This document shows positions 3,756 to 63,746 of a stretch of DNA of 64,000 bases, piece after piece. Both the position numbers and the translations under genes were made by a program. The stretch's first letter is position 1. The number at the start of each line of letters is the position of its first letter. Where the stretch lies: NCBI GenBank assembly GCA_902385255.1, contig CABMEV010000010.1, positions 64,114 to 128,113 of the forward strand, read 5' to 3'. The notes beneath the pieces were generated by a model. The model was not told the DNA's origin. It saw only the letters and a list, made by a program, of their open reading frames with translations, and ran no database searches. Origin of the DNA: Candidatus Tiddalikarchaeum anstoanum. Lineage in GTDB: Archaea; Nanobdellota; Nanobdellia; Tiddalikarchaeales; Tiddalikarchaeaceae.

Positions 3756-4118
3756 ATGGTTTCTTCAAAGAAGCTTGTTTTAGTTGTTGATGATAATGAA
3801 GATATTCGTTTTCTTGTTAAGACCTGGCTTACAAATGCTGGATTTTCCGTTGTCACCGCTGTTGATGGTGATGATTTAATAAAAAAGTTAGACAAGAATA
3901 TTGATTTGGTGTTGACTGATTTTCACATGCCGGGCCCCGACCCGAAAATAGTACTTGACTCTATTAAGAAGAAAAGTCCAAAGGCAAAAATTATCTATCT
4001 TACGGGCTCCGTTCCTGATGTTATGATTAAAAGTCCAGTTGTTGGTTTTATTTCAAAGCCTGTGGAGGAAGAGGTCTTGATTAAGAAATTAAAAGAATTA
4101 TTCCTTAAAAATAAATAA
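3756..4118 (+). CDS. Single-domain response regulator (receiver/CheY-like)
   Basis: 120 aa. LVVDDNEDIRFLV...LVLTDFHMPG (acidic pocket, phospho-acceptor Asp), conserved K near the C-terminus. No output domain. Confidence 0.85.
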   Translation: MVSSKKLVLVVDDNEDIRFLVKTWLTNAGFSVVTAVDGDDLIKKLDKNIDLVLTDFHMPGPDPKIVLDSIKKKSPKAKIIYLTGSVPDVMIKSPVVGFISKPVEEEVLIKKLKELFLKNK

Positions 4119-4153
4119 TTATTAAAGCTTTGACTGCCTTAACTTGAGGTTTA

Positions 4154-7100
4154 ATGGCTGGATACGATGATTTTACTAGTGAGAAATATTTTAGACTCTT
4201 GTTCGACAAGATGAGTGATGCGGCATTTCTCGCGGATGTCGAGTCCGGACTTTTATTTGATGCTAATTTGTCAGCAGTTAAATTAACAGGCAGAGCGAGA
4301 AGTGAGCTAGTTGGCAAGCATCAGTCTATTCTCCATACTGATAAGAATGAAGGTAAACGGATTTTCAGGGCAGCGATGCTTGAAGGTGCGCCTCACGAGT
4401 TTGAAAGCAGTGTAATCACAAAAAAAGGAAATATAGTTCCTGTTTTAATCACAGTCACTATTATCAAGCTTGATGGCAGAACTTTTGCCTTGGGAATTTT
4501 CAAAGATATCACTGAAATTAAACACGTCGAGACAGAATTATTGAAAGAGAGGGAATGGTCAAACTCGATTATCCACTCAGCTCCAAATATTATTATAGGA
4601 CTTGGCAAGAATTCTAAAATATTAATATTTAATGAGTTTGCAGAAAAACTTACTGGTTATAAGGCTAAAGAAGTCATTGGCAGTAACTGGATTGATATAT
4701 TCATATCTAAAGACAAGCGCAGGGAGATGTATAAATTATGGGAAAACATTGTTGACAAAAAATTGGTCGGGCATCATTATACTAATCCAATAATCCTGAA
4801 GGACAAATCGGAGCGTTTAATTTCATGGAACAACACCTGCTTAACTGAACATGATAAATTTAAGATGGTGCTTTCAATTGGTGAGGACGTTACCGAACGG
4901 GAGAAATTACTAATCCAGTTAAGACAGAGCGAGTATAAGTATCGCAAGATTTTCGATAATTCTCCTGAGATTATCATCCTGCTGGATAATTTCGGCAAAG
5001 TTCTCGATATTAATTATAGTGTCTTTAACGCTATTGGCTATAAACCCAGTGAGGTTATAGGTAAGTTATTCTTCAAGCTGCCTTTTATACCCAAAAAATC
5101 TATGGTAGCAATGAGAGAGAATTTTATCAAACGTGTTAAAGGCGAAGATGTCGGCTCTTATACTGCAGATTTCATAGCGAAAAACGGGCTTACGCATTAT
5201 GGCCAGGTAAATGGCTCCGTAGTCAAGGATGATAATGGAAGAATTATTCGGTCATTAATAACCATACGCGACATTACTGAGATTAAGAATGCTGAGACTG
5301 AATTGGTGGAGAGCGAGCAGAAGCTTTACAGCATTATTAACGGCTCGCTGACGCCCACGTTTGTCATAGGGACTAACCATAAAATATTATACTGGAATTC
5401 AGCTTTGGAAAAATTGAGCGGTCTTACTGCAAGGAAGATGATTGGCACAAATAATCAATGGGTGGTTTTTTACAATAAGAAGAGGCCTGTAATGTCGGAT
5501 TTATTGGTTAATGGAGATTTCAAGGCAGTTCATTCCTGGTATGCTAATAAAGTATCTAAGTCCAGCTTGTTAGCGAATGCGTACGAAGCCATTGATTTCT
5601 TCCCGAAATTAAAAAAGTGGCTGCGATTCGGTGCAGTCCCAATCAAGGACAGCAAAGGCAAACTAATTGGAGCTATTGAAACGTTAGAAGATATTACTGC
5701 AAAAAAGAAATTTGAGGAATTATTGATTAACAGTGAGTCTCGTTTCAAAGCTTTGTTTAATAACATGAAGAGCGGGGTTTCAGTTTATGAGGCAGTTAAT
5801 AATGGTAATGATTTCATTTTTAAGGATTTCAACAAGGCTGCCGAGCGTATCGATAAAATAAGCAAGGCGTCAGTTATTGGGAGGAGTATCTTGAAAGTTT
5901 TCCCTGGAGTTCGCAAGTTTGGATTGTTTGATATCTTTAAACAAGTATACAGGACAGGCGTTCCTAAACATCACCCTATATCATTGTATAAAGATAAAAG
6001 ATTGAACAGTTGGCGTGAGAATTATGTTTACAAGCTTCCTACTGGCGAGATTGTTGCTGTTTTTGATGATGTCACTGAGCAAAAAAAAGCAAATATCGCT
6101 TTAACTTTTAGTGAGGTTCGTTACAGGCGTTTGTTCGAGGCGGCGCGTGACGGAATATTTATACTGGATTATGAAACAGGGAAGATTGTTGACGTAAACC
6201 CTTACATGACCGAGATGCTAGGCTTCACCCACAATGAACTCATTGGCGAGAAGCTTTGGGATCTTGGCTATTTTAAGGATATTATCGCCAGCCGAGCTGC
6301 ATTCAAGATACTGCAGAAGAAAGGTTATATCCATTACGAGAACCTGCCTCTTAAAACTAAGAAAGGTATTATCTTTACTGTCGAATTTGTAAGCAATGTT
6401 TATGATGTTGGCGGCAGAAAAGTTATCCAGTGCAATATTAGGGATATTACTGGCCGTAAAAAGGCTGAAGAGAAGATAGTAAGCCTTGCCAGGTTCCCTA
6501 ATGAGAATCCAAATCCTGTAATGAGGTTTTCAAAGACAGACCTTTTATTTGCCAATAAGCCAGGTCTTGACTTTTTTAAAAAATATGTTGCTTTTTGCAA
6601 AAACCGCAAAGATACCCTTAGAAATCTGATAATTGAATCTTTAAAAAATAATATTAGAAAAGATGCAGAGATTAATCTCGGGGAGAATTATTATTTATTA
6701 TTTTTCATCCCGTTCGTTAATGAAAATTATGTTAATGTATATGCTATTAATATTACAACGCGCAGAAAGGCAGAGGGATTACTGCAGGACAGCGAATCCC
6801 GTTTTAGGGAATTATTCAGCAGTATGGGCAATGGTGTTGCAGTTTACGAAGCGGTTAATGACGGCGCAGATTTCATTTTTAAGGATTTGAACAAGGCAGG
6901 GGAAAGGATTAGCAAGATTAGGAGAAGTAAAGCAGTTGGGCAAAGGCTGACTAAACTATTCCCAAGCATTAAGAAATCAGGGCTGCTGGAAATGTTCACG
7001 CGCGTTTTCAAGACAGGGAAATCTGAAAGAATTCCAGCTGTACTTTATAATGACAAAAATTTAAACCAATGGGTTGATAATTATGTGTATAAACTACCAA

Positions 7101-20295: not shown

Positions 20296-21543
20296 TTACC
20301 AGCATATCCCATCATAGACTGCAGCTGCTGTTTTTATTTTCCTTCCCGCTATTACTATCTTACCTTTGTACAAATCTTCTTTTTTGAACTCGTCCCAGTC
20401 TGTTATTATCAAAACAGCATCGCTCTCATCCACTGCTTCTTTTGCGCTTTTTGCAAAATTTACTTTGCCATCGAATATTTTCTTTGCATTCTCCATCGCT
20501 TTCGGATCGTATGCGACTACTTTGGCGCCTAACTGCAGCAACTCGTTGATTATGGTTATGCTTGGAGATTCCCTCATATCATCAGTTCCTTTTTTGAAAG
20601 CAAGCCCCAATATGCAGATTTTTCTGCCTTTAGGGTTTATGTGGTTCTTTAACAGCGCGATTATCTTTGAAGGCTGTTTTCTATTGACTTCCATCACGCT
20701 TTTTAACAAAGTCATAGGCTCTCCTGTTTCTTCGCCTTTTTTAATTAATGCTTTGACATCTTTCGGGAAACAACTGCCCCCAAATCCGCACCCTGCATCC
20801 AAAAAGCTTCTGCATATTCGTTTATCCATGCCTACAGCATCCATGACATCATAGACGTCTATCCCTATTTTTTTGCATACGTTGCCTACTTCGTTTGCGA
20901 AGCTTATCTTTGTTGCAAGCAGGCTGTTGTTTGAGTATTTTATCATCTCTGCAGTTGTGGGATTCGTTACGAATATCTTTTGAGGAAAACCTTTGTATAA
21001 TAATCTCATCTTCTCCTCAGTTTTTGAGTCAATGACGCCGAGAACCACCCTGTCCCCTTCGAGGAAGTCCTTGATTGCAGTCCCCTCCTTTAAGAATTCA
21101 GGATTCATAGAGAGCCCGAAAGCTTTGCCGCTTTTGTCAAGTATCGGCTTCACTATATTCATGGTTGTTCCAGGAACCACGGTGCTCTTTACAACAACCA
21201 CTTTATAATCATTCAAGTTCTCGCTTATCGTTTTTGCAGCGCTCTTGATATAATCAAGATTGATGCTTCCGTCATCGCTGCTGGGAGTGCCGACGCATAT
21301 GAATACTATTTCGCTTTTTGTTATTCCTTCCTTGGAATTAGTTGTAGCTTTCAACGAGCTTTTCTTAATCATGCTCTGCAATAATTCCTTCATGCCTTCC
21401 TCGTATATTGGAGGTTCTCCGCTGTTAATCATGTCTACTTTTTTATTGTCAATGTCAATGCAGGTCACAACATGGCCCATCTTTGCAAAACAAACGCTTG
21501 TTGTTAATCCAACATAACCGCTTCCAACTACTGCGATTTTCAT
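20296..21543 (-). CDS. UDP-glucose/GDP-mannose-family nucleotide-sugar 6-dehydrogenase
   Basis: 415 aa. N-terminal Rossmann MKIAVVGSGYVGLTT, catalytic GFGGSCFPKD. Confidence 0.9.
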   Translation of the reverse strand: MKIAVVGSGYVGLTTSVCFAKMGHVVTCIDIDNKKVDMINSGEPPIYEEGMKELLQSMIKKSSLKATTNSKEGITKSEIVFICVGTPSSDDGSINLDYIKSAAKTISENLNDYKVVVVKSTVVPGTTMNIVKPILDKSGKAFGLSMNPEFLKEGTAIKDFLEGDRVVLGVIDSKTEEKMRLLYKGFPQKIFVTNPTTAEMIKYSNNSLLATKISFANEVGNVCKKIGIDVYDVMDAVGMDKRICRSFLDAGCGFGGSCFPKDVKALIKKGEETGEPMTLLKSVMEVNRKQPSKIIALLKNHINPKGRKICILGLAFKKGTDDMRESPSITIINELLQLGAKVVAYDPKAMENAKKIFDGKVNFAKSAKEAVDESDAVLIITDWDEFKKEDLYKGKIVIAGRKIKTAAAVYDGICW

Positions 21544-21586
21544 AATGAAATAGAATGAATGCCTTTAAGTTTTATAAATATTTTTT

Positions 21587-36388: not shown

Positions 36389-37966
36389 TCAGCAGCTCCT
36401 AATATCATATACTTTTGTCATTTCATAATTTTTAACAGATATGGAATTATAAGGGCATCTGGCTAGACTATTATTTATGCTGCTAACACATTCGCCGCTT
36501 CCTATCACATGCGTAATGCTTGAATTTTTTAAAATTTCAAAACTGGGGCAGGTATTAGTTCCCAGCATTAATTTAGCTATTCCAGCGTTGATGTAGTTAA
36601 CATTATTGTTAACATAGAATCCGATTAGGCCTGTAGTGCCGACCGGGTCGTATACGTTTACACCGTTTAATGAGTTTAAGTATTCGCCAACGATTCTTGA
36701 GTCAAAATTGCGAAGGTTATGGCCATCTTGGCATTCCTGGCTCGTGCATAATACGTTTTTTGCAAGCCCCATATTCGGGAAATAATATGCTGTCAATGCT
36801 AGGTCTGAGATTATTATCACTAATGAGATTATAAGCCAAAATTTGGATGCGTATTTTATTTTATTATTATCCGAGAAAACTCTTCCTGCAATTATGAAAA
36901 AAAGCATGGAGTACTGTATTCCTCTCTTTATGGATTCGTGAGCTTCGAAGAATCCGCTGAAGAGCAACAAAACTAACAAGAAGACTGAGAATGCATCATT
37001 CAATTTGATGTTTTTTATTTCTTTATATATCATATATAAAGAAGATGCTACTAGTATCCATAATAACGGATTATTGAAGAACAAAGAGTCATATAATAAT
37101 TCAAATAGTACGAAGTGGATTCCTGCTCCTCCTGCCAAGTTGTAATACTGGTATACTTTGTACGGGACGCTGAAATCAAATCCAAAGATTATTCCTAATG
37201 TCAGCGCGCTAACTCCAGCAATTATGAGAATATTTTTCAAAATAACTACGACATCAAATGATAATTCTTTCTTCAGCATCTTAATGCCAGCGATTGTTGA
37301 AAATGCTGCAAATAAAGGTATGAGAACCAAGCCGTTTAGTTTCGCGGCTGCTATGAGCCCTAAAAATACGCTGCTAATAACCAAGTCCTGCAATTTCTTT
37401 TTTTCAAGCCATAAGTAGAAAAATAGCAGCGCCAAAACAGTGTATAATATCTGGAAAATTTCAAGCAGCGCCACCCTGCTGTAGTCTATGATTAACGGGT
37501 TGAATGAGAATAGTGCAAAACTTATTAGTCCCGCTTTTTTCCCGTACATATTTTTAACCAGGAAATATATTACTACTCCGCTTATTATGCCTGCAAGCGC
37601 AGACGGCAGCCTCGCTGCAAACTCGAGTCCTTTTATCAAATCCCTGTTAACATCTATGCTTGCATAATCCATCTGTGGATAATTTCTTATAGGCGAGAAG
37701 TCGCGGTTTGACAATAAGACAATTGACAATCCTATTGGCCACTGCCCTCCAGGTGTTGCCATATCATATAATGAGACGCTGTAAGGATTGTTCAAAAAAT
37801 GTTTTATCCCAGCCGTAATAATCACAGGCTCGTCAGTAGTATAACCAACGGAGTCAAGATTGCTTAATCGGATAAAAGATGATACAATAAGCACTGCGAA
37901 GAATATTAACGTAAACTTGTCAATTTTGATTTTCATTTCAGTATCCTCTCTGCTATACTCACCCAA
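36389..37966 (-). CDS. Polytopic membrane glycosyltransferase-like protein (GT-C fold, ArnT/PMT-like?)
   Basis: 525 aa. N-terminal TM with a TTDEP acidic loop motif, about 11 TM, and a C-terminal soluble Cys-containing domain. Confidence 0.5.
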   Translation of the reverse strand: MGEYSREDTEMKIKIDKFTLIFFAVLIVSSFIRLSNLDSVGYTTDEPVIITAGIKHFLNNPYSVSLYDMATPGGQWPIGLSIVLLSNRDFSPIRNYPQMDYASIDVNRDLIKGLEFAARLPSALAGIISGVVIYFLVKNMYGKKAGLISFALFSFNPLIIDYSRVALLEIFQILYTVLALLFFYLWLEKKKLQDLVISSVFLGLIAAAKLNGLVLIPLFAAFSTIAGIKMLKKELSFDVVVILKNILIIAGVSALTLGIIFGFDFSVPYKVYQYYNLAGGAGIHFVLFELLYDSLFFNNPLLWILVASSLYMIYKEIKNIKLNDAFSVFLLVLLLFSGFFEAHESIKRGIQYSMLFFIIAGRVFSDNNKIKYASKFWLIISLVIIISDLALTAYYFPNMGLAKNVLCTSQECQDGHNLRNFDSRIVGEYLNSLNGVNVYDPVGTTGLIGFYVNNNVNYINAGIAKLMLGTNTCPSFEILKNSSITHVIGSGECVSSINNSLARCPYNSISVKNYEMTKVYDIRSC

Positions 37967-48338: not shown

Positions 48339-49577
48339 ATGTTCATTATGAAACTTATGGACAAGATAAAGAGCAAGTCTGCTAAAATATGCGTTATAGG
48401 TATAGGTTATATGGGCCTGCCAATCTCTGCTCTCTTTGCTAAGCAAGGTTTTGATGTATTAGGTTTTGATGTTGATGCAAAAAAAGTTGAGCTAGTGAAT
48501 AAGTCAATACCTCCGTTTGAAGAAAAAGACCTGCCTGAACTAATTAAATCAGTGCGCTTTAAGTCAAAACTAAGGGCTTCATCAAAGATAGAAAAAGCTG
48601 ACATTTTTTTAATATCAGTGCCAACTCCAAAAAAGAACAATAATGCAGACTTATCCTTTGTAGAAGCAGCAACTAAATCAATATATTCAGTTTTAGAGGA
48701 GGGAAATCTCGTAATACTCGAATCAACAGTTCCCCCAAAGACTTCAATAAATCTTATCAAGCCACTCCTTGACCAGAAAAAAATAAAATATTACTTGGCC
48801 CACTGTCCGGAAAGGGCATTCCCAGGCAATACTATTTATGAATTAATTAATAATGACAGGATAGTCGGCGGCTTGGATGAAGAGGCAACAAGTCTGGCAA
48901 AAGAATTGTATTTAACATTCGTAAAAGGCAAAATATTTACCACAACTATTACCACAGCTGAGTTTTGCAAACTGGCGGAGAATACTTATCGTGATGTAAA
49001 CATAGCCCTCGCAAATGAGCTTGCATTATTATGCGAAGATGTAGGGATTAATGTTTGGGATTTAATTGAGCTCGCGAATAAGCATCCTCGTGTTAATATC
49101 CTGCAGCCTGGACCTGGAGTCGGCGGGCACTGCATACCTAAAGACCCAATATATTTGTACAAATCTTCCACCAAGGCTAAATTAATACCTATAGCCAGGG
49201 AGGTAAATGACAGTATGCCAAAACACGTTGTTGATATGATTAAAGAAGAGGTTAAAGGAGTAAAGAAACCAAAAATTGCATTGCTTGGCGCCTCCTTTAA
49301 AAAGAATGTGGATGACACGAGGGATTCGCCCACTGAATTCATTGCAAAACTATTATTAGACCTGGATTATGAAGTTAAAATACACGACCCTCTTGTTAAA
49401 ATGTTTAAATTTGAATTAAGCGATTATGATGCTTGCGTAAAAGATGCCGACTTAGTCGTTTTATTAATAGACCATGACTATTATAAAAGCAAGGATTTCA
49501 GCAAACTTAAAATATTAGATACCAGGAATTTTTACCCCAAAGCTGCAAGAAAATTAGGTGTTGGTTCTAAACCTTAG
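48339..49577 (+). CDS. wecC: UDP-N-acetyl-D-mannosamine dehydrogenase (nucleotide-sugar dehydrogenase)
   Basis: 412 aa. KICVIGIGYMGLPISALFA, catalytic GVGGHCIPKDP. Immediately downstream of wecB. Confidence 0.85.
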   Translation: MFIMKLMDKIKSKSAKICVIGIGYMGLPISALFAKQGFDVLGFDVDAKKVELVNKSIPPFEEKDLPELIKSVRFKSKLRASSKIEKADIFLISVPTPKKNNNADLSFVEAATKSIYSVLEEGNLVILESTVPPKTSINLIKPLLDQKKIKYYLAHCPERAFPGNTIYELINNDRIVGGLDEEATSLAKELYLTFVKGKIFTTTITTAEFCKLAENTYRDVNIALANELALLCEDVGINVWDLIELANKHPRVNILQPGPGVGGHCIPKDPIYLYKSSTKAKLIPIAREVNDSMPKHVVDMIKEEVKGVKKPKIALLGASFKKNVDDTRDSPTEFIAKLLLDLDYEVKIHDPLVKMFKFELSDYDACVKDADLVVLLIDHDYYKSKDFSKLKILDTRNFYPKAARKLGVGSKP

Positions 49578-58382: not shown

Positions 58383-59213
58383 TTATAATACGTAGCCTAT
58401 TGCGAATATTAAATTTCTTATAATGCTAATAAACGATAATTTAATCTTATAACCCAGACTCAGATTATCATACCTTATTATATTTATAATAAATATAATC
58501 AGTAATAGCGGCGGGAAAACTACGGCGGTTAAGAATAATATAATTTTGGCTGCAGGGAGATTATTATTCTTTATGTAAAATTTATGCATGTTTTTCGAGA
58601 ATTTCCATGTTCTTTTAACTAATTTTGTCATACTGTCAGGTTCGCCTAAATGATACTGGACTGCTTTTTTTTCAAAAAATATTTCGTATCCTAATTTTCT
58701 TATTCTTATACCTAAATCAATATCCTCCCCATATTCGAGCGTTTCGTCAAAGCCGCCTGCTTCTCTTAATACTTTTTTTCTTAAAATCCACGCGTTTTTC
58801 GGGCTGAAATTATTATTTTGGCGCAATTCAAATTCTTCCTGCAGTGTTTTCGCAACCCAAGTTTTAGGTTGGTACAATTCCCTTTTATCGAGCATGCAGG
58901 ATATTTTAGCGTCCGTCATCCTCATCTTGACTATTTTAATATAATTATCATAATAAATTGAGTCTGATTCTATGAAGATTATAACGTCATTTTTTGCATT
59001 TTTCCATCCCGTATTTCTTGCAGCCGAACGATTGCATCTTTTTTTAATTATTTTAGCGCCGTATCTTTTTGCAATGTCTAAAGTTTTATCTGTTGAATAA
59101 GAATCAACTATTATTAACTCGTCATTTTTTTCTAATTGTTTGTTTAATGAATATAAGCAGGCGTCAAGTGTTTTTTCCGTATTTATTGTTGGAATTACTA
59201 AACTAATATTCAT
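58383..59213 (-). CDS. Family 2 glycosyltransferase with a C-terminal TM anchor
   Basis: 276 aa. MNISLVIPTINTEKTLDACLYSL...IIFIESDS, hydrophobic C-terminal tail. Confidence 0.8.
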   Translation of the reverse strand: MNISLVIPTINTEKTLDACLYSLNKQLEKNDELIIVDSYSTDKTLDIAKRYGAKIIKKRCNRSAARNTGWKNAKNDVIIFIESDSIYYDNYIKIVKMRMTDAKISCMLDKRELYQPKTWVAKTLQEEFELRQNNNFSPKNAWILRKKVLREAGGFDETLEYGEDIDLGIRIRKLGYEIFFEKKAVQYHLGEPDSMTKLVKRTWKFSKNMHKFYIKNNNLPAAKIILFLTAVVFPPLLLIIFIINIIRYDNLSLGYKIKLSFISIIRNLIFAIGYVL

Positions 59214-59240: not shown

Positions 59241-59993
59241 TTATTTCTTTTTAAAATAGTCCCATGCTTCTTCTACGCTGTCCCAGTTTCCCATATCCAA
59301 GTACATCGCATTTGTTGATACTACTTTTATCTTTTCGCCGTTCTTCAGCGCTGTCTTGAATACGTCAGGGACTTGGTATTCTCCTTTTAATCCAGGGGGA
59401 GTCTTCTCGATGTAGTCAAACACTTTCTTGTTGAATATGTAAATGCCAAGATTAACCAAGTATTTCCCGTTTACTTTGAATGGTTTTGCCTGTTCAAGTG
59501 TCGGCTTCTCAATTGTGTCAACTAATTCTCCTTTGTCATTGACTCTTAGTATTCCGTAAAGTGTCGGGTTATCAACTTCTCTGGCTAAGATAGTGGCAAA
59601 AGGCTTCTCCTTCTTGTGAACAAGGACTGCTTTTTTCATCTCATCTTCTGGATTAATAAAAGCATCACCAACGTGAACAATGAAATCCTCATCTATCCAT
59701 CCTTTTCCCTGCAGAATCGCGTGAGCAAGACCTTTTCTCTCTTCCTGAAATAAGTAGCCAATCTTCAATTTTCCGCTGTTAAACATTGTTCCATCACCTA
59801 AGTGGTCTATGATTGCACCCTTATGGCTTCCTACTATTACAAATATCTTATCAACGCCTGCGTAATTGTGCAATGTTTCAACAACGTGGTCAATGACGGC
59901 TTTTCTCTGGACGGGGAATAATTCTTTTGGGTTTGCTTTTGTGAATGGGTACATCCTTGTGCCGCTTCCTGCTGCTGGTATTAATCCAATCAT
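59241..59993 (-). CDS. Sugar-1-phosphate nucleotidyltransferase (short form, glucose-1-P thymidylyl/uridylyltransferase-like)
   Basis: 250 aa. MIGLIPAAGSGTRMYPFTKANPKELFPV. Confidence 0.85.
   Translation of the reverse strand: MIGLIPAAGSGTRMYPFTKANPKELFPVQRKAVIDHVVETLHNYAGVDKIFVIVGSHKGAIIDHLGDGTMFNSGKLKIGYLFQEERKGLAHAILQGKGWIDEDFIVHVGDAFINPEDEMKKAVLVHKKEKPFATILAREVDNPTLYGILRVNDKGELVDTIEKPTLEQAKPFKVNGKYLVNLGIYIFNKKVFDYIEKTPPGLKGEYQVPDVFKTALKNGEKIKVVSTNAMYLDMGNWDSVEEAWDYFKKK
59918..59990. repeat. ~70-bp near-identical direct repeat, copy 1 (5' end of nucleotidyltransferase gene)
   Basis: ggggaataattcttttgggtttgcttttgtgaatgggtacatccttgtgccgcttcctgctgctggtatta. Confidence 0.75.
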
Positions 59994-59995
59994 AT

Positions 59996-60787
59996 TTATT
60001 TTTTCACATCCTTTTCCTCTTTTTTAAGATTTCTAAAAAATTCGTTGGCTTTCTCGACACTCTCCCAGTTTCCTATATCTATATACTCGCCTTTTATTTT
60101 CACTACGCGTATCTTTTTGCCGTCTTTCAATGCCAGCTTTATAGAGTCTGTTATCTGGTACTCATCCTTTACACCTTTCGGGGTCTTTTCGATGTAAGAA
60201 AAAATCTCAGGTGAGAATATGTAAATCGCAGTCAGCGCCAAGTATTTATTACCCACTTTGTAGCTCTTTGCCTGTTCTAATGTCGGCTTCTCAAAAGTAT
60301 CAACTAAGTAATTTTTATTATCAACTTTTACAATACCATGATGAGTCGGGTCCTCAAGTTCAGTGACGAGTATTGTTGCAAAAGGCTTCTCCTTCCTTTG
60401 AATATTAACAGCATCCTTTAATTCGTCTTTAGGATGGATGAATGAATCTCCTGCGTGAACGATGAAGTCCTCGCTAATCCAGTTTTTTGCCTGGTAAATC
60501 GCGTGCGCGAGTCCAAGACGCTCTTCCTGAAAAAGGTATGCTATGCTTAAGTCGTTGCTGTCATCTTTGCCTCCGCTTCCAACGTGGTCTATTATTGCAC
60601 CTTTATGGCTTCCGACGATTATTAGTATCTTGTCAACACCCATGTATTTGTGCAAAGATTCTATTACGTGGTCTATCACTGCACGCCTCTCTATTGGGAA
60701 TAATTCTTTTGGGTTTGCTTTTGTGAATGGGTACATCCTTGTGCCGCTCCCTGCTGCTGGTATTATTCCTATCATTCTTTCATCCAC
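59996..60787 (-). CDS. Sugar-1-phosphate nucleotidyltransferase, tandem paralogue
   Basis: 263 aa. MIGIIPAAGSGTRMYPFTKANPKELFPI. The first ~30 aa are nearly identical to the downstream copy. Confidence 0.85.
   Translation of the reverse strand: MDERMIGIIPAAGSGTRMYPFTKANPKELFPIERRAVIDHVIESLHKYMGVDKILIIVGSHKGAIIDHVGSGGKDDSNDLSIAYLFQEERLGLAHAIYQAKNWISEDFIVHAGDSFIHPKDELKDAVNIQRKEKPFATILVTELEDPTHHGIVKVDNKNYLVDTFEKPTLEQAKSYKVGNKYLALTAIYIFSPEIFSYIEKTPKGVKDEYQITDSIKLALKDGKKIRVVKIKGEYIDIGNWESVEKANEFFRNLKKEEKDVKK
60700..60772. repeat. ~70-bp near-identical direct repeat, copy 2
   Basis: tgggaataattcttttgggtttgcttttgtgaatgggtacatccttgtgccgctccctgctgctggtatta. About 68/71 identities to copy 1. The rest of the two genes are far more diverged. 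Confidence 0.75.
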
Positions 60788-61713
60788 TCAATCATTTTTG
60801 CCAAGCCCGTTTCGAGTTTTATTTTAGGAGACCAGTTTAAGAGCTTTTTAGCTTTGGTGATATCAGGAACTCTCTGCGGAGGGTCGTCCATTGGCAGGTC
60901 TTTGAAAATTATCTTCGATTTGGAATTCGTGACTTTTACTATTTTTTTTGCAAGTTCCAGAATGGTAACTTCTTCAGGGTTGCCTATGTTGATAACTTCA
61001 CCATTTAACTCCTTCTTCGTTGCAAGCGTGTATATTCCTTCAATTAAATCATCGACGAAGCAGAAACTCCTAGTCTGTTTCCCGTCTCCGTAAATAGTTA
61101 TTGGTTCATTATCCAGTGCTTGCATGATGAAATTAGTCATTACCCTGCCGTCGTTGTACCTCATGTGGGGTCCGTAAGTGTTGAAAATTCTGACAATCCT
61201 GCAGTCAATGTTGAATTTGTGAATGAACTCATAGCATAACGCCTCTCCAAAACGCTTGCTTTCGTCATAACAGCTTCTTGGTCCGAAACTGTTAACGTAG
61301 CCGTAATAAGTTTCCGGTGTAGGTATCACTTCTGCCTTGCCGTAAACCTCGCTTGTGCTTGCGAATAAGAAGCGGGCGCTGTCTTTCTGTGCTTTTTTCA
61401 AAAGATTGAATGTGCCTATGCTGTTGGCGAGTAATGTGTCAAAAGAGTTAGTCTGATAATCGCTCGGGCTTGCCCTGCTTGCGAAGTGGAGTATTAAGTC
61501 AACTTTTTCAATATCATCCAGGTCTTTTGTAACATCTTTCTGCATGAATTTGAATCTTCCTGTTTTTCCAAGGTCTTCAATGTTATTTAGTGAACCAGTT
61601 CCCAAATGGTCTATGCAGATTACTTCATTGCCTGTATTTACGAATTTGCTGCAGAGGTGGCTGCCTATGAATCCAGCGCCTCCGGTAATTAAGACTTTCA
61701 TAATAGTAATCAA
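60772..61713 (-). CDS. UDP-glucuronate decarboxylase (UDP-xylose synthase)-like SDR
   Basis: 313 aa. MKVLITGGAGFIGSHLC, catalytic YDESKRFGE (UXS-type YDEGKR motif). Confidence 0.7.
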   Translation of the reverse strand: MITIMKVLITGGAGFIGSHLCSKFVNTGNEVICIDHLGTGSLNNIEDLGKTGRFKFMQKDVTKDLDDIEKVDLILHFASRASPSDYQTNSFDTLLANSIGTFNLLKKAQKDSARFLFASTSEVYGKAEVIPTPETYYGYVNSFGPRSCYDESKRFGEALCYEFIHKFNIDCRIVRIFNTYGPHMRYNDGRVMTNFIMQALDNEPITIYGDGKQTRSFCFVDDLIEGIYTLATKKELNGEVINIGNPEEVTILELAKKIVKVTNSKSKIIFKDLPMDDPPQRVPDITKAKKLLNWSPKIKLETGLAKMIEWMKE

Positions 61714-61739
61714 TCACTGCTAATTATAAATATATTACC

Positions 61740-61762
61740 TTTATCCTACTTGGTAGGATAAA
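61740..61762. promoter_or_regulatory. Perfect palindrome TTTATCCTAC-ttg-GTAGGATAAA (10-bp arms, 3-bp spacer) in the divergent promoter region; candidate operator
   Basis: Seen in sequence. It lies just upstream of the TATA-like element for the RHH-fused nucleotidyltransferase gene and 27-49 nt upstream of the minus-strand UXS-like gene start. Confidence 0.5.
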
Positions 61763-61766
61763 CAAC

Positions 61767-61777
61767 TTAATATATTA
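61767..61777 (+). promoter_or_regulatory. TATA-like element (CTTAATATATT) about 28 nt upstream of the ATG at 61800
   Basis: Seen in sequence. Confidence 0.4.
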
Positions 61778-61799: not shown

Positions 61800-62570
61800 A
61801 TGAAGAGTAAGCTGTCAATAACGCTGGATGAGAAGATAATAAAATCTTTGGATAAGTACATTGACGGAGTAAATATAAGGAACCGTTCCCAAGCTATAGA
61901 GTTCTTCATATCAAAGCACTTAAGCCAGAACAGGATTGCTGTGATACTGGCGTCGAAGATAGAGCCTTTCAGGATACTTGCTAAGATAAAAGGCCAGCCT
62001 TTGATTATGCATACTGTCAAGCTTCTTCAGTCTTATAATTTCAAGAAGTTGTTCGTGATTGGCGAGAAGGAGATTTTGTCGCAGGTTTTTACTGTTCTTG
62101 GGACCGGGCAGGAGTACTTGATGAGCATAGAGTATGTTGAGGACGTTAATCCGAAGGGTAGTGCTGCGTCTCTTTCGCTTTTGAAGAATAAGGTTGATTC
62201 GACGTTTCTGGTTGTTCCTGCTGATAATTTTTTCAATACTGATATTAATTCGTTCTGGACTTTTCATGTTAAGAGCGGCAAACTGGTTAACTTGGCTATC
62301 TCTGCTGCAAGTAATCCTACGAAGCTTGGTATTATAGACTTACAGGGTGGGAGTATTGTTGGTTTTGAGCAGAAGCCTAAGAAGAGTACGAGTTATCTTA
62401 TCTGGACTGGTATTATGATTTGCGAGCCTGAGATTTTATATTATAACTGCAATTCTATTGAGAAGGATTTGATACCGAAACTTATCTTAACTCGTGACTT
62501 GGGCGGTTTCGTATTTGCAGGCCAGTGGAAGAACATACACACAAAGAAAGACATAGAAGATTTACGCTAA
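61800..62570 (+). CDS. Sugar-phosphate nucleotidyltransferase with an N-terminal ribbon-helix-helix (CopG-like) extension
   Basis: 256 aa. N-terminal LSITLDEKIIKSLDKYIDGVNIRNRSQAIEFFISKHL fits the RHH pattern (beta strand xSxTLD, helix, RxRSxxI). It is followed by an NTP-transferase fold (IAVILASKIEP...VVPADNFF). Confidence 0.6.
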   Translation: MKSKLSITLDEKIIKSLDKYIDGVNIRNRSQAIEFFISKHLSQNRIAVILASKIEPFRILAKIKGQPLIMHTVKLLQSYNFKKLFVIGEKEILSQVFTVLGTGQEYLMSIEYVEDVNPKGSAASLSLLKNKVDSTFLVVPADNFFNTDINSFWTFHVKSGKLVNLAISAASNPTKLGIIDLQGGSIVGFEQKPKKSTSYLIWTGIMICEPEILYYNCNSIEKDLIPKLILTRDLGGFVFAGQWKNIHTKKDIEDLR

Positions 62571-62804: not shown

Positions 62805-62888
62805 CCAACAAAAATTGAGTATTCAAGCTGATTTATTGTGCAAAGCCGTGTTTAGAGTTAAATATATAAATAAGTATTACTTCGTAAT

Positions 62889-63746
62889 ATGTTTATGATT
62901 GTTCGTGAACGAATTTCTCTAACAATAGATAAAAACGTCCTGGCGGCAGTTGACGCCACAGTAGACGGCAATAAAGTACGCAACAGAAGCCATGCAATGG
63001 AGGTCTTACTCTCAAAGGCACTGGGCAACAAGCGCGTGAAGAGGGCATTCATACTCGCAGGCGGCAAAGGCACAAGACTTAGGCCCATAACTTACGAAAT
63101 ACCTAAACCAATGGTGCCAATACACGGAAAACCATTATTACAGCACACCGTAGAACTATTGAAAAAATATGACATCAGAGATATCATAATCTCAATAGGA
63201 TTCTTAGGAGAAAAAATCCAGGAATACTTCGGCAATGGCTCAAAATTTGGAGTCAAAATAAGCTACGTAAAAGAAGACGAACCTCTCGGAACAGCAGGAC
63301 CACTTAAGATTGCAAAACCATTACTTGAAGACGCGCACTTCGTCATGATAAACGGAGACAACTTATTCAACATAGACTTGTTCGATATGATAAGCACACA
63401 CTTCGAAAACGGGGCTGTAGCAACAATAGCATTAACATCAGTTAGCGATCCGACAAAATTCGGAGTAGCACAGCTAAAAGGGAGAAAGATACTGAAATTC
63501 ATAGAAAAACCCAAGCTTGAAGAAGCACCTTCCAATTTAATCAATGCAGGAGTATACTTATTCTCGCCGAAAATATTCGATTACCTGCCTGAAAACAAAA
63601 AAAATATTATGATAGAAACAGAAGTTTTCCCAAAACTCTTAGAGAAAGGAGAGTTCTATGGCTACGTCATGGAGGGACAATGGCTTCCGGCAGGAACACC
63701 TGAAGAGTATGAGAAAGCAATACAAGAATGGAGAGATATAGAATGA
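62889..63746 (+). CDS. Sugar-phosphate nucleotidyltransferase (mannose-1-P guanylyltransferase-like) with an N-terminal RHH-like extension; paralogue of 61800..62570
   Basis: 285 aa. N-terminal ISLTIDKNVLAAVDATVDGNKVRNRSHAMEVLLSKAL, then AFILAGGKGTRLRPITYEIPKPMVPIHGKP (canonical nucleotidyltransferase G-loop). An alternative start at 62895 (MIVRE) aligns better with the paralogue. Confidence 0.8.
   Translation: MFMIVRERISLTIDKNVLAAVDATVDGNKVRNRSHAMEVLLSKALGNKRVKRAFILAGGKGTRLRPITYEIPKPMVPIHGKPLLQHTVELLKKYDIRDIIISIGFLGEKIQEYFGNGSKFGVKISYVKEDEPLGTAGPLKIAKPLLEDAHFVMINGDNLFNIDLFDMISTHFENGAVATIALTSVSDPTKFGVAQLKGRKILKFIEKPKLEEAPSNLINAGVYLFSPKIFDYLPENKKNIMIETEVFPKLLEKGEFYGYVMEGQWLPAGTPEEYEKAIQEWRDIE

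Follow-up and report, generated by a model that had tools for sequence, protein, structure and literature searches.

Is a perfect palindrome between two divergent genes of an archaeon the binding site of the regulator encoded beside it? We addressed this question in a 64,000-nucleotide stretch of the DPANN archaeon Candidatus Tiddalikarchaeum anstoanum (contig CABMEV010000010.1, positions 64,114 to 128,113; hereafter the window). The palindrome, at 61740-61762 of the window, lies between a UXS-like gene and a gene encoding a ribbon-helix-helix (RHH) domain fused to a nucleotidyltransferase-like domain (gene 1), and the first-pass annotation had proposed it as a dyad operator of the RHH protein. 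Comparison with relatives strongly favoured an operator-like cis-element tied to the RHH gene, and to this extent the proposal stood; the symmetry did not, as the conserved unit is not a dyad. We consider it likely that the palindrome forms the right two thirds of a tripartite operator, which would be bound by an autoregulated, probably UDP-sugar-sensing RHH regulator acting as a repressor.

The palindrome and the block around it

The palindrome reads TTTATCCTAC-TTG-GTAGGATAAA; its two 10-nt arms are perfect and 3 nt separate them, exactly as had been annotated. It lies in the 98-nt gap between the ATG of the UXS-like gene (61701, - strand) and that of gene 1 (61800, + strand), and the TATA-like A/T-rich stretch at 61767-61777 follows just after it, so that its placement in a shared divergent region was also borne out. 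The sequence occurs once in the window, even with up to three mismatches tolerated. At the window G+C content of 36%, three perfect inverted repeats (arms of at least 10 nt, spacer of at most 8 nt) were found vs 1.0 expected from dinucleotide shuffles; for those with at least three G/C per arm, 0.45 were expected and the probability of at least one was 0.39. The palindrome alone is therefore statistically unremarkable, since about one of its class is expected per 64 kb, and its weight comes from position and conservation, not from the symmetry itself. Two other perfect palindromes of the window are nearly pure A/T and lie inside coding sequence: 37019-37043 (12-nt arms, TTCTTTATATAT-C-ATATATAAAGAA) in a long open reading frame (ORF; 36389-37966, - strand), and 58477-58499 (11-nt arms, ATTATATTTAT-A-ATAAATATAAT) in a GT2 gene (58383-59213, - strand).

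The intergenic region contains three 7-bp boxes (heptads), spaced 11 and 10 bp apart, all between two back-to-back putative core promoters. TATA box 1 (TTATAAAT, 61724-61731, - strand; TTTAAAT in the family) is the candidate promoter of the UXS-like operon. Heptad 1 (ATATTAC, 61732-61738, + strand; mostly ATCTTAC in the family) abuts this box, at the position of the B recognition element (BRE) of the divergent promoter. Heptad 2 (ATCCTAC, 61743-61749, + strand) is identical to the family consensus, of which it is the most conserved part, and heptad 3 (GTAGGAT, 61753-61759, - strand) is its inverted copy in the window lineage. TATA-like box 2 (TTAATATATTA, 61767-61777, + strand) is the putative promoter of gene 1. 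The palindrome consists of heptads 2 and 3 with symmetric TTT/AAA flanks, and omits both heptad 1 and the upstream TATA box. TATA box 1 is centred about 27 nt from the UXS ATG and TATA box 2 26-30 nt from the ATG of gene 1, spacings that suggest leaderless mRNAs in both directions, with promoter function and start positions predicted from sequence.

We then compared this region with relatives found by protein similarity among one genome per GTDB species. The scan gave 210 relatives, of which the best 80 loci were analysed; by record title they are mostly Woesearchaeota/Nanoarchaeota, with some Aenigmarchaeota, Micrarchaeota and Nanohaloarchaea, and the protein identity to the gene-1 product is 33-41% for most wider-family loci. 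Three close orthologues (61-70% identity) keep the arrangement of UXS (-) and divergent RHH gene (+), followed by a second paralogue and phosphomannomutase-type genes. Between the two divergent genes they retain TATCCTAC-N3-(G/A)TAGGA, while the DNA on either side has diverged. The same result was obtained more broadly, with the palindrome core kept in all seven close orthologue loci (the palindrome being retained in L001, L003, L004 and L006-L008) amid diverged intergenic DNA.

Beyond the close relatives, 76 of 81 loci, each from a different GTDB species, carried the block T(T/A)TAAAT-ATCTTACC-nTT-ATCCTAC-yTT-xTxxxAx in the 600 nt preceding the RHH gene. An alignment of 78 sequences (76 loci, the window and L011) made with MAFFT contained this 35-nt block without a gap. 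Counted from heptad 1, positions -7 to +27 each carried 1-2.5 bits of information, against about 0 in the flanks. The columns of TATA box 1 (2-8 of the alignment) were 86-99% conserved. T2, T5, A6 and C7 of heptad 1 were conserved in 96-99% of loci; the T, T, A and C of heptad 2 (T..TAC) were invariant, and both of its other C's reached 95-97%. Heptad 3 varied in type, being ATSCGAT-like in about 50% of the sequences, a direct repeat ATNNTAC in about 26% and inverted, (G/A)TA(G/A)GAT, in about 18%, the window clade being among the last; of the seven positions of heptad 3, T2 and A6 alone were invariant. As judged from this alignment, the conserved unit is the 35-nt block of a TATA box and three phased heptads, and not the dyad; perfect dyad symmetry arises in those lineages whose heptad 3 repeats heptad 2 in inverted form. 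The palindrome of the window is thus one lineage's form of an element kept by hundreds of DPANN archaea.

The position of the block relative to the two genes was also regular. The distance from heptad 1 to the divergent ATG was modally 30-32 nt, with TATA box 1 centred about 27 nt from that ATG, a spacing that fits leaderless archaeal mRNAs and places heptad 1 at the BRE position. On the other side, the ATG of the RHH gene lay 59-72 nt (about 61) from heptad 1 in about 50 of the 78 loci, the window included, and a second TATA box (consensus TTTATATA) followed heptad 3 at a distance of 3 nt, some 26 nt before the ATG, likewise in about 50 of the 78. In 14 of the 78 loci there was no second TATA box, and the heptads lay between TATA box 1 and the ATG, or the ATG fell inside heptad 3, as in GTAGGATG of L001 and L029. 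A site between TATA box and start is the classic position of an archaeal repressor. In 14 of the 78 (L051, L052, L059, L077, L080 and L084 among them), extra DNA placed the block 95-498 nt upstream of the start codon. Directly after heptad 3, L051 and L059 have in common a hairpin-like CAAGGGTTTCGCCCCTTG, and GAGCGAAGCGAACGG-like stretches are common to several loci with extra DNA between block and RHH gene; such DNA could be small mobile insertions, similar to miniature inverted-repeat transposable elements, or structured leaders.

The motif was specific to this place. When 501 kb of family loci were searched on both strands with at most three mismatches, 76 matches fell in the 600 nt preceding the RHH gene and three lay elsewhere, among them a copy in reverse orientation immediately before the RHH gene of L078. 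In the window, one heptad pair was found vs 0.09 expected, and searches there with the strict heptad grammar, with heptads 1 and 2 at three mismatches and with the pattern of the second paralogue gave no further copy above chance. The occurrence of more copies, raised by the first-pass annotation, thus found no support within the 64 kb, and the window gives no basis for claiming a regulon beyond the local promoters. We also ran the test in reverse, by scanning metagenome contigs for ATCTTACCNTTATCCTAC blind to any gene. The results showed 130 sites, of which 79 were followed by an RHH-family gene on the same strand and 12 were too near a contig end to evaluate; the remaining 39 were mostly 11-bp satellite arrays or clearly unrelated sequence. 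The satellite arrays (ATTATCCTACC and variants, in L103, L108, L146, L179 and L197) contain the heptad sequence by coincidence; the arrays, some of which carry long repetitive ORFs (YHYPTIILPLS...), appear unrelated to the archaeal promoter element.

The RHH protein with a nucleotidyltransferase fold

Gene 1 (61800-62570, + strand) encodes the predicted regulator, a 256-aa protein with an RHH domain and a degenerate nucleotidyltransferase domain. Its N-terminal 48 aa scored 20.9 bits against the Pfam family RHH_1 (cut-off 20.5), compared with 16.5 bits for the full-length protein, and RHH_1 was matched by 31 of 35 family N-termini. Searched against solved structures, a profile of the N-termini matched NikR (E = 3.7e-4), the RHH antitoxin Rv0298, the NikR of P. 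horikoshii and CopG. The RHH assignment made from the reading frame was thus confirmed. The β-strand of the family, KxSxT, aligned with the RxTxT strand at the start of NikR (RVTIT, residues 3-7), which we take to be the DNA-contacting strand residues of that protein. RNRSQA (kept in 99 of 101 proteins) and MKxKISIT are almost invariant in the family, which matches the invariance of the heptads.

The C-terminal domain matched NTP_transferase (PF00483, E = 6e-17), with the match beginning only at profile position 27, and a family profile searched against the PDB matched RmlA, GMPP and UGPase. An AlphaFold model of this domain had a predicted local distance difference test (pLDDT) score above 90 and matched RmlA/GMPP enzymes in Foldseek with TM-scores of 0.70-0.75. 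The catalytic GxGTRL loop, part of the signature G-x-G-T-R-L(x)nPK that binds the nucleoside triphosphate phosphates, was absent from all 101 family proteins; the window clade has a 9-residue deletion in this region, and GGPEE(K/R)L replaces the loop in the wider family. The pocket residues G120, G177 and K192 are invariant and D142 is nearly so. The signature loop is intact in the second paralogue of the window and in the two upstream nucleotidyltransferase genes. The label "nucleotidyltransferase" therefore describes the fold of the gene-1 product and probably not an active enzyme, because the catalytic loop is missing. The most fitting description of the protein is a fusion of an RHH domain and a pseudo-enzyme, and the nucleotidyltransferase domain is probably a sensor, as its retained pocket suggests.

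NikR (PDB 1q5v, 2hzv, 2bj1), the best solved-structure match of the N-terminal domain, follows the same logic, with an N-terminal RHH domain and a C-terminal domain for ligand binding and oligomerisation in one polypeptide. The C-terminal domain of NikR has an ACT-like metal-binding fold, whereas that of gene 1 has a nucleotidyltransferase fold, so that the protein falls outside the NikR family; its ligand is presumably a nucleotide sugar rather than a metal. The cores of the gene-1 heptads, TCCTAC and GTAGGA, are one base from the Escherichia coli NikR half-sites TCATAC and GTATGA (PMC7055735). The NikR half-sites are inverted and 16 bp apart, in contrast to the three boxes of the window, which lie 10-11 bp apart in mixed orientation. 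For the C-terminal domain, a parallel is GMPPA, a non-catalytic paralogue of GDP-mannose pyrophosphorylase that is reported to bind GDP-mannose and to regulate GMPPB (PMC11228364). GMPPA (PDB 7d72; profile E = 7.6e-7, and also a match of the model) is a product sensor of nucleotidyltransferase fold without catalysis, as we propose for gene 1. It works through allostery on a partner enzyme, not through DNA, and lacks an RHH domain, and for the gene-1 product ligand binding is a prediction.

A candidate operator and its alternatives

From these comparisons we infer protein-DNA binding, a repressing sign, a ligand and start positions, as follows. TATA box 1 would drive the UXS/UDP-sugar operon leftwards and TATA box 2 the RHH gene rightwards. 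The N-terminal domains of the gene-1 product would dimerise and bind one dimer per heptad on one face of the helix, and the C-terminal domains would bridge neighbouring RHH dimers; enzymes of the nucleotidyltransferase fold are commonly dimers or tetramers. The bound complex would cover the BRE of the divergent promoter and abut that of its own promoter, and in relatives with a compact arrangement it would cover the start site of its own gene. Such occupancy of BRE and start site makes repression of both transcription units the most likely outcome. The C-terminal domain, which has lost the triphosphate loop and kept nucleotide- and sugar-pocket residues, may sense a UDP-sugar or a precursor and tune DNA binding, which would give feedback control of UDP-sugar synthesis.

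The arrangement of the boxes resembles known RHH systems. Adjacent RHH dimers of the Arc/CopG/MetJ type bind cooperatively about one helical turn apart. As in the candidate operator of the window, the boxes of Arc, CopG and MetJ are short, repeated and placed in the regulator's own promoter, and CopG was among the matches of the N-terminal profile. They are single-domain proteins at sigma-70 promoters of bacteria and phages, whereas the window has a predicted two-domain regulator at an archaeal divergent promoter with TATA and BRE elements. The omega protein (ParB) of pSM19035 binds as one RHH dimer per 7-bp heptad, and heptads in direct or inverted orientation both work (PMC9499535). A similar tolerance of orientation would explain how heptad 3 could flip between lineages without loss of function. 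The omega heptads differ in being contiguous (7-bp period), with at least four needed for partition, compared with three in the window, one helical turn apart and within a promoter.

Several observations weigh against this interpretation. BRE positions overlap or adjoin heptads 1 and 3, whose conservation could therefore partly reflect basal promoter function. In the window, the gene-1 site lies upstream of both predicted TATA boxes, a placement with which activation is also compatible. The RHH part was poorly modelled in a single chain, as coil (1-10), helix (11-21) and helix (29-41) with pLDDT below 50, which is expected for an obligate dimer; such low values agree with, but do not argue for, the two-stranded antiparallel sheet that RHH dimers insert into the major groove. 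The candidate ligand of the C-terminal domain is hypothetical. In the reverse scan, moreover, five to seven sites with TATA box and motif adjoined a UDP-glucose dehydrogenase gene and had no RHH gene beside them (L107, L111, L123, L124 and L178); the RHH regulator for these sites could be encoded elsewhere in the same genomes.

Those sites, together with a second site in L010 away from the RHH gene, are what would be expected if the operator were bound by a different transcription factor for UDP-sugar genes and the RHH gene were merely a frequent neighbour. We regard this as unlikely. The motif stays with the RHH gene as the divergent partner changes from UXS to UDP-glucose dehydrogenase, to a 303-aa protein or to none, and short repeats phased by one helical turn are typical RHH targets. 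In addition, the heptad core differs at a single base from the half-site of NikR, the nearest RHH relative with a solved structure, and the promoter of the paralogous RHH gene carries distinct heptads of its own, as is expected of autoregulators. Basal promoter architecture alone, in which two TATA boxes and BREs would serve TBP and TFB with no dedicated regulator, appears quite unlikely. It would account for heptad 1 lying exactly at the BRE position, for the BRE-like ...GATAA end of heptad 3 upstream of TATA box 2 in most loci, and for distances to both start codons that fit leaderless promoters. However, heptad 2, the most conserved of the three, occupies neither BRE position, and the two putative BREs are unlike each other; in 14 loci the heptads come after the TATA box and span the start site, where a BRE would make no sense. 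The block, moreover, occurs once per locus and at this gene pair only, as the 76 matches against three elsewhere demonstrate, and is absent from all other promoters of the window.

A role of the palindrome as a nucleic-acid structure (RNA hairpin, attenuator, terminator or DNA cruciform) was rejected as very improbable. The arms pair in 59.0% of cells among 73 distinct family sequences vs 59.1% after shuffling, the central C-G pairs form in 12-14 of the 73 with no covariation, the element lies upstream of both predicted transcription starts, and no Rfam match was found in the window; the perfect 10-bp arms and 3-nt loop that suggest a structure are those of the window genome. A chance origin of the palindrome in a genome rich in A and T is hardly credible. 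The frequency of its class, about one per 64 kb, is indeed at the chance level, as is the probability given above for G/C-containing arms, but this reading is contradicted by more than 150 independent loci that conserve the element at a fixed position to one gene family with unconserved flanks.

The second paralogue and the neighbouring genes

The second paralogue (62895-63746, + strand) has an RHH domain and a nucleotidyltransferase domain with an intact GGKGTRL loop. Its TATA box, TTAAATATATAAATAA (62858-62873, + strand), contains ATATATAAATAA, which is conserved in seven loci. The first-pass annotation had noted a weaker dyad near 62875-62889 that overlaps the start codon. The element, GTATTAC-TTC-GTAATAT at 62874-62890, is present and corresponds to a conserved heptad pair (GTAWTAC twice) in orthologues; neither the overlap nor the dyad character was upheld. 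A start at 62889 (MFMIVRER) is an alternative. In six orthologues the upstream ATG is missing and the frame opens at the counterpart of 62895 (MI.RE(R/H)), as it also does in the database protein P0102 (283 aa). The true start is thus probably 62895 (MIVRER...), and the element would end 4 nt before the start codon. At the same place, L001, L004, L006-L008 and L208 have GTATTAC-N3-GTATTAC-GTT-ATG, a direct repeat whose period is 10 bp. Since the box GTAWTAC reads as a palindrome on its own, the orientation of each box means almost nothing. Heptad 1 of the gene-1 site (ATATTAC) resembles these boxes. Among distant members, L205 has GTAATAT-ATT-GTCATAC and L207 has ATATTAC-ATT-ATCATAC-TTT-ATCTTAA. 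The family of the second paralogue is a very large archaeal one, with 7500 proteins at E < 1e-20 among 8000 candidates scored. A residue-to-base recognition code, sought by setting the β-strands of both paralogues, L205 and L207 against their heptads, stayed at the level of an idea, the data being scarce and ambiguous.

In Sulfolobales, the aCcr1-box as defined by experiment, A-GTAATAC-N (PMC9976878), has a core that equals the heptad GTAWTAC of the second paralogue and occupies the same promoter position, the likeness being one of box and position. This placement between TATA box and start was found for the site of the second paralogue in seven loci and for gene-1 orthologues in 14 of 78, with TATA boxes and starts predicted from sequence. 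aCcr1 is a small stand-alone RHH protein that acts on cell division genes and has many genomic targets (PMC9976878), whereas the RHH domains of the window are fused to an enzyme-like domain and sites of the window type were seen in the own or divergent promoter.

A broader reading would join both paralogues. A dead copy of the first enzyme of the pathway would serve as sensor of a ligand (UDP-glucose, UDP-glucuronate, UDP-xylose or a precursor) and, through a nearly invariant three-heptad operator in more than 200 DPANN species, control UDP-sugar synthesis; the active RHH-nucleotidyltransferase paralogues would be enzyme-repressors that regulate themselves through related heptads with ATC/GTA half-sites. 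We put this forward tentatively, at slightly less than an even chance. If true, RHH recognition would follow a simple code, and no regulator-operator-ligand circuit of such wide conservation would have been predicted before in these uncultivated archaea. To our knowledge, hardly anything has been learned of how DPANN archaea regulate their genes, since they are uncultivated. RHH autoregulators with repeated boxes are already well known. A literature search for RHH with nucleotidyltransferase, for Woesearchaeota and for Tiddalikarchaeum found neither the fusion nor the motif described, which is not proof of novelty; an RHH domain fused to a dead nucleotidyltransferase, a three-heptad architecture in a divergent promoter and a site nearly invariant at the level of a phylum were likewise not found in the literature searched.

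The element gives a testable circuit, with a 35-bp site, a 256-aa protein that should express easily and few candidate ligands, and the site is conserved enough to serve as a regulon marker in metagenomes. It would also be an example of an enzyme fold recycled as a sensor through fusion to a small DNA-binding domain. RHH-nucleotidyltransferase fusions are common in archaea and are annotated as enzymes ("GlmU" in this genome); our results suggest for them a regulatory role in cell-surface sugar supply, which is likely to be important for symbionts that depend on host contact.

The neighbouring genes point to the branch from UDP-glucose through UDP-glucuronate to UDP-xylose, to which we tie the element on the basis of Pfam families and general knowledge. 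The UXS-like gene (60772-61701, - strand) encodes an NAD-dependent epimerase/dehydratase with matches to the Pfam families Epimerase and GDP_Man_Dehyd, and its ATG at 61701 is conserved. Downstream of it, two tandem sugar-1-phosphate nucleotidyltransferase genes with intact G-loops (59241-60787, - strand) are probably in one operon with UXS. The divergent UXS position is conserved in seven loci, and the order of UXS then nucleotidyltransferase genes recurs in L001, L006 and L007. UXS as a universal divergent partner was discarded, as it holds for the window clade only; elsewhere the partner is UDP-glucose dehydrogenase or another gene. For most family members the partner of the operator is UDP-glucose dehydrogenase, and in at least 34 distant loci the divergent neighbour was UDP-glucose 6-dehydrogenase followed by a nucleotidyltransferase (counts from tblastn with three query proteins, hence lower bounds).

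At L010 3650-3685, a second, near-palindromic site, ATCCTAC-TTT-TTAGGAT, is preceded by a TATA-like TATTAATATA and lies about 50 nt upstream of a separate NAD-dependent (NDP-sugar) epimerase/dehydratase gene, 2 kb from the RHH gene; it hints at a small regulon. In the window, two UDP-glucose dehydrogenase homologues (20335-21558, - strand, and 48378-49559, + strand; 46% and 31% identical to the L048 enzyme, respectively) lie far from the operator. In six loci (L022, L025, L027, L032, L058 and L061), the divergent gene encodes the 303-aa protein, which has no Pfam match (2013-2924, - strand, in L022), and UDP-glucose dehydrogenase lies just past it. In L139 and L163, metagenome contigs of higher G+C content, an exact ATCTTACCGTTATCCTAC without TATA context or RHH gene precedes by 110 nt, in the same orientation, a gene of the UDP-glucose/GDP-mannose dehydrogenase family (N-terminus MERPFLEKV...IGLGYVGLP); either coincidence or a remote trace of the same regulation could account for it. 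Finally, a LAGLIDADG-type homing endonuclease gene (3985-4674) lies directly downstream of the RHH gene in L048, a Woesearchaeota locus.

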